DNA from: a virus
Taxonomy: Duplodnaviria; Caudoviricetes
Reading direction: 5' to 3' (one strand)
Length of the DNA: 64,000 bases
Virus record (IMG/VR): IMGVR_UViG_3300002307_000018
Coordinates: 192,001 to 256,000 of that record
Shown here: in pieces, positions 25,272 to 26,026 of the stretch
Layout: the number at the start of each line of letters is the position of its first letter
Position numbering within the stretch: position 1 is the stretch's first letter
Notes under the pieces: model-generated
What the model was told of the DNA's origin: nothing
The model's database searches: none
The model's input: the letters and a program-made list of their open reading frames with translations, nothing else
Program-made: the position numbers and the translations under genes

Positions 25272-25377
25272 CATCACTACTGAGAATCGAACTCAGTTGG
25301 CCAGTCTGCGCTAGACTGAGAGATACGCTCGGTGATAAATTATCTTACCTTTTCTCTTGCCTCACCATTATGTGATT

Positions 25378-25450
25378 ACCATATTGAAATACACCAAACT
25401 ACTTAGGCCGCGATAGGGGCCATTGTTCATCTGATGTACTTCAATATGGT
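25378..25450 (-). ncRNA. stalk-closed ncRNA, unit E3
   Basis: same arms; GGCC/GGCC inner hairpin. Confidence 0.75.
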
Positions 25451-25544
25451 GTCGATTGGCCAAGATCAACAAGAATAAACCTAGCTCTGTTTCCATGGTT
25501 CAAAGCATCTAGTCTCACCAGTGACTTTTCGTCTATTCTTACTT

Positions 25545-25666
25545 ACCATATTGAAACACTCTGTCATTTCAGACTATACACCCTTGCCAGATGTCAACCA
25601 TAATAGGTTCCTGTTAATTCAGGTACTGTAAAACTTCTTTCATAAAGTTTTGTGCTTCAATATGGC
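25545..25666 (-). ncRNA. stalk-closed ncRNA, unit E4
   Basis: both arms lack the same 2 bp (GCCATATTGAAGCAC / GTGTTTCAATATGGT). Confidence 0.75.
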
Positions 25667-25790
25667 GTCCTATCGTCGTTTCCGGACAATTGGCGGTCAA
25701 GCCACAGCCCTTCATCTATTGTCGAACTCATGCGATTCTGTTTGGGGTCCGGTGTGACTAGCAACGACCTCCCTCCCGATCTACACTCAA

Positions 25791-25913
25791 ACCATATTGA
25801 AATACACTCTTTAAACAAGTTTATCGGCACTGCCTCTTGTTGCGGCTGCTCACGGGTTTATCATATTTTATAATAATAAACGCTGCCTTATACTGAATGT
25901 ACTTCAATATGGT
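25791..25913 (-). ncRNA. stalk-closed ncRNA, unit E5
   Basis: same arms; inner GTTTATTAT/ATATGATAAAC hairpin. Confidence 0.75.
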
Positions 25914-26026
25914 TTCTATTGTGGGACTCGAACCCACAGTTTGCAACGGTTTCGATGAGTTTTATCTCATCGGAGGGTTTAAGCGTCCCGCCGCCGTCTG
26001 CGTCTACCTTTACCGCTATTATAAAC

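Follow-up and report, generated by a model that had tools for sequence, protein, structure and literature searches.

Among the RNA systems in which helices or tRNA-like elements set the boundaries of other RNAs, RNase III stalks are long helices that bracket individual RNAs in polycistronic precursors and set them apart from adjacent tRNAs, for example in ribosomal RNA operons with spacer transfer RNAs (tRNAs) and at the R sites of phage T7, and the mascRNA behind MALAT1 is a tRNA-like processing signal. To this latter type belong the t-elements of plant mitochondria, tRNA-like acceptor/T-arm modules in longer transcripts whose cleavage by tRNA-processing enzymes (RNase P and RNase Z) sets the ends of the neighbouring RNAs (PMC1920247). 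YrlA Y RNAs, which Ro60/Rsr binds and which are found also in phages, imitate the acceptor stem and the T and D arms of tRNA, and some of them are cleaved by RNase P and tailed with CCA (PMC4201824). Phage T4 encodes two stable RNAs, RNA C (species 1 RNA, rnaC) and RNA D, on the tRNA strand within its tRNA cluster; fifty years on, neither has been assigned a function. Their roles are unknown (PMC3014915, PMC9697503). Here we analyse a DNA stretch of 64,000 nucleotides (nt), hereafter the window (positions 192,001 to 256,000 of IMG/VR record IMGVR_UViG_3300002307_000018), which derives from a 264.6-kilobase (kb), 74% complete record of an uncultured giant freshwater phage. The window holds 31 tRNA genes, exclusively on the minus strand (ARAGORN, default settings), and five long helices, termed stalks A-E, occupy the interval between tRNA-Tyr (26257-26341) and tRNA-Asp (25068-25144). 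Two of the spacers between these stalks, tl1 and tl2, and a third element closer to the start of the window, tl3, are on balance probably tRNA-derived, non-decoding small RNAs that fill tRNA slots in a modular operon of tRNAs and other non-coding RNAs and that resemble T4 RNA C in kind.

Anatomy of the tRNA-like RNAs

The stalks, tl1, tl2 and the two other spacers, sp2 and sp3, lie throughout on the strand that carries the 31 tRNAs. The elements on which the argument turns are the following (bp, base pairs).

25156..25271, minus strand: stalk A, a conserved stem of 19-20 bp with its cargo, 94.6% identical to a related locus (L253)
25268..25377 (25272-25377 without ACCA), minus strand: tl1, a tRNA-like RNA of 106 nt plus ACCA, with a 5-bp acceptor-like stem (AUCAC/GUGAU), a three-way body and a T arm
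25280..25296, minus strand: T arm of tl1, CUGAG-UUCGAUU-CUCAG, identical in locus L206
25378..25450, minus strand: stalk B
25545..25666, minus strand: stalk C, 98.4% identical to locus L051, with a compensatory U-A to C-G change within its own stem
25791..25913, minus strand: stalk D
25910..26026 (25914-26026 without ACCA), minus strand: tl2, a tRNA-like RNA with an acceptor stem paired at 5/7 positions, a D arm, a 5-bp anticodon stem and a T arm
25921..25937, minus strand: T arm of tl2, GUGGG-UUCGAGU-CCCAC, found by the T-arm motif scan and by relaxed ARAGORN
26000..26016, minus strand: D-arm-like hairpin of tl2, GCG-GUAAAGGUAGA-CGC, with a 3-bp stem and GG in the loop
26027..26116, minus strand: stalk E
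22319..22413, minus strand: tl3, also tRNA-like and uncalled, in which all 7 bp of the acceptor stem form and a body of three hairpins is combined with a canonical T arm and ACCA

The initial annotation, made from the letters of the sequence, had described tl1 and tl2 as ending in a canonical T arm followed by 7-8 nt and an ACCA shared with the next stalk, and sequence inspection and the motif scan agree with it. Both T arms consist of a 5-bp stem and a 7-nt UUCRANY loop. A canonical tRNA then continues with a 7-nt acceptor strand, a discriminator and CCA; in tl2 the T arm is followed by AAUAGAA (7 nt) and ACCA, i.e. AAUAGAA-A-CCA, and in tl1 by the 8 nt UAGUGAUG and ACCA. The ACCA of tl1 (25271-25268) doubles as the first four bases of stalk A, and that of tl2 (25913-25910) as the first four bases of stalk D. 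In place of a 5-bp anticodon stem with a 7-nt anticodon loop, tl1 has a three-way junction and tl2 has a 5-bp stem (GACGG/CCGUU) that caps about 44 nt with two hairpins, so that the expanded and branched anticodon domain first read from tl2 is borne out, as is the broader view of both RNAs as tRNA-shaped molecules lacking a decoding loop. The tl RNAs cannot serve as ribosomal adaptors. The D arm of tl2 had been called Leu-like; its 3-bp stem and the GG of its loop stand, but 'Leu-like' is a resemblance only, and no close parent of either tl2 or tl1 exists among the 31 resident tRNAs.

Neither tl1 nor tl2 is called as a tRNA by ARAGORN at default settings, a cloverleaf being drawn for tl2 only at a lowered threshold and with a 37-nt 'intron', and comparison of 25100-26300 with the Rfam tRNA model (RF00005), up to an expectation value of E = 10, matched only the flanking real tRNA. 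ARAGORN likewise reported no transfer-messenger RNA by default and only scattered overlapping calls at a 70% threshold. Folding energies compared with shuffled sequences gave z = -1.5 for tl1 and z = -1.7 for tl2. Outside the called tRNAs, the minus strand of the window has seven copies of the strict T-arm motif and the plus strand one, the chance expectation being about 0.5 per strand per 64 kb.

The same strand bias is found across related arrays. In 1.52 megabases, 188 uncalled T arms lie on the tRNA strand and 16 on the opposite one, a 12-fold difference. Just under half of the former (93 of the 188) are followed by 7 nt, a discriminator (N) and CCA; these T-arm/CCA elements range from 68 to 217 nt in size, and for 47% of them, as opposed to 17% in the shuffled control, the upstream sequence contains a perfect 7-bp acceptor partner. 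Eight uncalled T arms are fused to the following stalk, as in tl1 and tl2, and twelve are enclosed by a stalk and abut its 3' arm. In the window, tRNA-Cys comes immediately downstream of tl3, whose counterpart in locus L374 is 83.5% identical. Large uncultured T4-type phages appear to carry many more non-decoding tRNA look-alikes of the type of RNA C and RNA D, at least one of them under strong constraint, and these look-alikes are built into a recurring helix with which their CCA ends pair. There is also a practical warning for annotation, namely that in phage tRNA arrays a substantial class of T-arm/CCA elements escapes tRNA finders.

Another uncalled tRNA-like family occurs in tRNA arrays of other phages (L381:6340-6460 and L382-L385, contigs from Joint Genome Institute (JGI) metagenomes). 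Its members pair over 8 bp in the acceptor stem (GUUCUAUU/AAUAGAAC), share their T arm with tl2 and contain a second, internal hairpin that resembles a T arm, and they possess neither CCA nor stalks. The array of Stenotrophomonas phage DLP_6 (L378, 102089-114544) contains many T-arm-plus-CCA copies that are not annotated as tRNAs, and this phage could provide an experimentally tractable model for phage tRNA look-alikes.

The stalk family and the upstream CCA

The arms of stalks A-E are near-identical, reading ACCAUAUUGAAGUACAUU ... AGUGUAUUUCAAUAUGGU on the minus strand, and no two of them enclose the same cargo RNA. Where the arms fail to match, the minus strand has G.U and the plus strand A.C, which assigns the helix to an RNA of the tRNA strand. 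A reading of the arms as miniature inverted-repeat transposable elements or as integron attC sites was rejected, as the cargo varies from copy to copy, target duplications are missing and the wobble pairs are strand-specific. Further copies in the window are:

21683-21771, minus strand: stalk with compensatory changes
27412-27502, minus strand: stalk with compensatory changes
27232-27404, minus strand: stalk with compensatory changes
27044-27146, minus strand: stalk variant with compensatory changes and arms AUCAUUAUUGAACAC / GUGUUCAAUAAUGAU, in which a terminal T arm of the cargo abuts the 3' arm

The twelve stalks with an enclosed T arm mentioned above are built like this last variant; they belong to other phages and have homologous cargo (L015, L051, L068).

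Among the IMG/VR pattern matches listed, 188 loci of uncultured phages could be oriented by their tRNAs; they yield at least 280 non-redundant stalks with a 19-bp stem, and it is to this listed set that the following percentages refer. Standard pair types alternate at 8 of the 19 stem positions over 280 stalks, a U.G wobble occupies position 16 in 76% of them and the box UAUUGA/UCAAUA is invariant in the helix. In 86 of the 280, stem positions 1-3 are the CCA of a called tRNA, so that the doubling of ACCA as the start of a stalk, noticed at first for the two spacers, holds for ordinary tRNAs too; at the other end, the stalk abuts the first base (G1) of the next tRNA exactly in 33 of the 280. 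What becomes of the base of the stalk when the junction is relaxed? CC/GG is present there in 97% of fused cases and in 65% of stalks that follow a spacer without a T arm, and it falls to 9%, with UU/AA instead, behind tRNAs that have a CCA of their own and stop 1-12 nt short of the stalk. Because CC/GG is retained in 97% of fused cases but in only 9% of those with a separate CCA upstream, the CC at the stalk base is the CCA of the upstream RNA, with the partner GG tracking it. These comparisons support the fused CCA as a family-wide and selected feature. Outside this family, stalk B found no BLAST match among 50,697 phage records, the stalk pattern is absent from Stenotrophomonas phage DLP_6, Xanthomonas phage X1 and Vibrio phage nt-1, and we found no published description of the stalk/CCA architecture in the literature.

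The arms of the neighbouring stalks that flank tl1 and tl2 are themselves complementary, with 0 and 1 mismatches, respectively, and a helix formed by them would run on into the acceptor stem. From this, the initial annotation had considered that the array might be a conformational switch, toggling around the tRNA-like spacers between pairing within each stalk (register 1) and pairing between neighbouring arms (register 2). The complementarity does exist, but selection for a switch is not what the family suggests. Over 80 tandem neighbours, own arms differ by a mean of 0.58 mismatches, whereas neighbouring arms differ by 1.64, which is close to the 1.94 of random arm pairs. Moreover, compensatory changes always fall within one stalk, tying each arm to its own partner, isolated stalks between ordinary tRNAs have register 1 only, and register 1 would be the first to form during transcription. 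Register-2 pairing is, as far as these alignments can tell, a by-product of the repeated arms and not a selected switch, and a functional toggle is accordingly given very little credence.

Conservation, module order and surroundings

Apart from tl1 and tl2, the slots of the array contain three modules without T arms, of which sp2 and sp3 are not tRNA-like:

25451..25544, minus strand: sp2, a conserved module with a terminal 6-bp hairpin followed directly by ACCA
25667..25790, minus strand: sp3, a conserved module with a strongly conserved 5' half (by comparison with L313 and L051) and no stable predicted fold
26117..26256, minus strand: a 140-nt module between tRNA-Tyr and stalk E, with a long terminal hairpin followed directly by GCCA

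Could tl1 and tl2 be no more than decaying tRNA genes, i.e. pseudogenes whose shape is a remnant? Their weak acceptor stems, missing anticodon loops and sub-threshold tRNA scores would agree with such an origin, and the arrays of cultured relatives do contain annotated pseudo-tRNAs. Neither RNA, however, is a near copy of any resident tRNA, their T arms are perfect, and the CCA with its GG partner has been maintained. In the case of tl1 decay is already disfavoured, since the RNA is 90-99% conserved where flanks or coding DNA cannot be aligned or are at most 67% identical. Thus, tl1 is 90% identical to its copy in L206, the only further homologue that the IMG/VR scans returned, and the identity ends at the stalk arms, giving sharp module borders, whereas the coding DNA of the two contigs reaches at most 67% identity; a lake-metagenome contig that spans stalk A and tl1 has 1 change in tl1 and at least 19 in the cargo of stalk A. 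The non-tRNA body of tl1 is no less conserved than its T arm.

The other spacers behave alike. A copy of sp2 in L015 is 90% identical and differs in its terminal hairpin by a U.G to C-G change, and a copy in a lake-metagenome contig is identical; sp3 matches L313 and L051 at 78-81% identity, and three lake metagenomes contain it with 2-4 changes. The rapid sequence decay that would have marked neutral pseudogenes is therefore not seen in tl1, sp2 or sp3, which are not decaying neutrally because they are conserved as separate units, at 78-99% in relatives with coding DNA of at most 67% identity, and in lake metagenomes. The 140-nt module was found in three lake metagenomes with 3-5 changes. The multi-helix structures once attributed to sp2 and sp3 did not hold up, their folding energies being no better than those of shuffled sequence (z = -0.86 and z = +1.88, respectively). 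Coding potential of the spacers was rejected, given that homologues differ by insertions or deletions of 1, 2, 7 and 10 nt; in sp3, those of 1-2 nt exclude it. The 140-nt module also holds the sole copy in the array of the Ro-binding-type motif GNCGAAN0-1G, and no Ro60 gene was found in the record.

For tl2, a D-arm 15-mer scan of IMG/VR gave only chance matches in coding DNA, and a scan of JGI metagenomes with a 23-mer covering T arm and acceptor gave the L381-L385-type family and not tl2. This lack of a homologue in both scans is what decay would predict, although four lake-metagenome runs left 25920-26040 almost uncovered and so offer no evidence that tl2 is absent there. Taken for both RNAs together, decay appears quite improbable, and a non-decoding role remains the preferred reading.

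Module order is not fixed. The contig of L374 (G001:C1:17000-31000, minus strand) has a tandem array of four stalks after tRNA-Tyr in which modules are partly shared with the window and reordered; it reads stalk C then sp3, the window sp3 then stalk C. Metagenome contigs likewise join arms across whole modules. Identical arms thus seem, from the contigs compared, to allow the shuffling of cassettes, with assembly error at the repeats as an alternative source of such joins.

Loci related to the array have T4-type neighbours, namely RegA, T4 RNase H and deoxycytidylate (dCMP) deaminase. In the window itself, the surroundings include:

27548..27576, minus strand: a sigma-70-type promoter, TTGACA-17-TATAAT, 12/12 consensus, upstream of the run of stalks and tRNAs and in a region conserved in relatives
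26350-26455, minus strand: between tRNA-His and tRNA-Tyr, a non-coding element conserved at 89.6% identity in a relative (L051/L374)
33200-33270, minus strand: an Rfam tRNA match (34.6 bits) without an ARAGORN call, with a T arm and ACCA
17561-18613, minus strand: a gene for an Rnl1-type RNA ligase (PF09511), within the tRNA region
9684-10187, minus strand: a gene for a PF04308 RNase H-like (YkuK-type) protein, at the edge of the tRNA region

No terminator-like sites were predicted on the minus strand from the promoter down to 24800, and no gene for a CCA-adding enzyme was found in the 264.6-kb record. The element at 33200-33270 may be a 32nd tRNA or a further look-alike. The PF04308 protein and a metallophosphoesterase are the most frequent neighbours of stalk loci, and PF04308 homologues are present at 37 of 152 stalk-bearing loci. 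As a protein partner of the array this gene is only a lead, because homologues occur in stalk-less phages too, standing in the middle of the tRNA arrays of Stenotrophomonas phage DLP_6 and Xanthomonas phage X1.

RNA ligases of the T4 Rnl1 type are part of tRNA repair, and the presence of one in this tRNA region bears on a possible function of the non-decoding RNAs. CCA-ended mimics might act as decoys that titrate a tRNA-directed defence nuclease, a CCA-modifying toxin or a synthetase of the host, the more so as they display acceptor, CCA and T arm without an anticodon. Yet it is the anticodon loop, missing here, that most known anti-phage tRNA nucleases target, and the decoy function appears decidedly doubtful.

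A possible maturation pathway and its relation to known RNAs

The arrangement suggests one long polycistronic precursor in which tRNAs or tRNA-like modules would alternate with 19-bp stalks enclosing different cargo RNAs. The tRNA-like modules retain the half that the maturation machinery reads, i.e. an acceptor-type stem stacked on a canonical T arm and followed by N-CCA, and other helices take the place of the anticodon/D half. Before cleavage, every tRNA or tRNA-like RNA would have its N73-C74-C75-A76 paired, over three or four bp, to the UGGU that ends the following stalk. Maturation might then proceed in four steps. Each stalk would fold co-transcriptionally with its own partner arm; RNase P would cleave 5' of each tRNA or tRNA-like module; an endonuclease would cut at or just after the CCA, or inside the stalk, with subsequent trimming to the CCA; and tRNAs, CCA-ended tRNA mimics and hairpin-closed cargo RNAs would be released. 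The released mimics would most likely be stable and engage a factor that recognises the T-arm/acceptor/CCA side of tRNA, a role that has been suspected, though not proven, for T4 RNA C.

Do the tRNA-like modules need to be anything but processing signals? They could be pure punctuation, serving only RNase P and 3'-end processing and thereby freeing the neighbouring stalk RNAs. The retained half is exactly the part that matters to RNase P (acceptor, T arm and NCCA), the stalks adjoin a tRNA 3' end and, frequently, a tRNA 5' end opposite, with no spare nucleotides, and the t-elements provide a documented precedent (PMC1920247). What punctuation would leave unexplained is that such slots are also filled by sp2, sp3 and the 140-nt module, none of which has a T arm, and that many stalks have no tRNA or tRNA-like neighbour at all. 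Stable mimics are favoured over bare punctuation because tl1 is conserved no less in its body than in its T arm and because the slots also accept RNAs that lack a T arm; punctuation alone is thus judged improbable.

A bolder extension of the proposed pathway, which is possible though rather unlikely, is that the pairing of CCA into the stalk forms the core of an undescribed phage system of RNA maturation, in which a sequence-specific 19-bp helix, with its UAUUGA box and conserved U.G wobble, captures the 3' CCA of the preceding RNA and directs a precise cut. If so, any module between stalks, whether tRNA, tRNA mimic or other small RNA, would be released with a tRNA-type CCA end and each stalk as a hairpin-capped cargo RNA, and the identical arms would let phages shuffle RNA cassettes by recombination.

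Several observations weigh against reading tl1, tl2 and tl3 as tRNA-derived, non-decoding RNAs. As was noted at the outset, tl1 and tl2 have weak acceptor stems, pairing at 5/7 positions in both; the L206 copy of tl1 has 6 paired positions; tl1 has 8 nt, not 7, ahead of its ACCA; and the internal 7-bp hairpin of tl1, perfect in L206, has two mismatches in the window copy. The fact that sp2 and sp3 fill tRNA slots without a T arm indicates that tRNA shape is not required for the slot. Having no homologue in the scans, tl2 could be a lineage-specific decaying gene. None of tl1, tl2 and tl3 shows sequence homology to T4 rnaC or rnaD, local alignment scores lying within the shuffle range. Finally, it is from sequence that we infer the transcription of the array, its cleavage sites and the stability of its RNAs; no raw-read run containing this phage was found, and the only RNA runs matched at most 15% of its sequence words and consisted of contigs. 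The array points to a compact and apparently undescribed way to organise and mature a mixed operon of tRNAs and small RNAs.

How, then, does it compare with the systems named above? Like RNase III stalks, the window stalks are long helices around RNAs, but they form a near-fixed 19-bp helix in many repeats that starts exactly at the CCA of the upstream tRNA, and their cleavage is a prediction; no RNase III gene was found in the 264.6-kb record. The t-elements may be seen as the nearest functional analogue for a role purely in processing. They and mascRNA are, however, organellar or eukaryotic and have no encoded CCA paired into a downstream helix, whereas in the phage the module bodies are themselves conserved and cleavage is a prediction. 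In YrlA RNAs a long stem stands in place of the anticodon stem. A Y RNA reading of the array was rejected, as no TROVE/Ro60 gene (PF05731) is present in the 74% complete record, tl1, tl2, tl3, sp2 and sp3 contain no GNCGAAN0-1G motif, and there was no Rfam hit.

This leaves T4, which differs in having no conserved stalks and in an RNA C that has no encoded CCA; the annotated end of RNA D is GCACC, and the next genomic base is A. A AUAUUGAGUAG hairpin in RNA C resembles a stalk arm, a likeness put down to chance, since the hairpin is not conserved in EcS1 or UFV01. The fold of RNA C itself has 11 covarying pairs among T4, EcS1 and UFV01. Like tl1, tl2 and tl3, RNA C combines a canonical T arm (CCGGGUUCGAAUCCCGG) and ends paired in a terminal stem with an enlarged body that replaces the anticodon domain, and in phage EcS1 it is located between tRNA-Phe and tRNA-Trp, just as the tl RNAs occupy tRNA slots. 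The window array offers a comparative handle on the purpose of phage tRNA mimics, in the half of the tRNA that they have kept and in the partner to which that half is attached.

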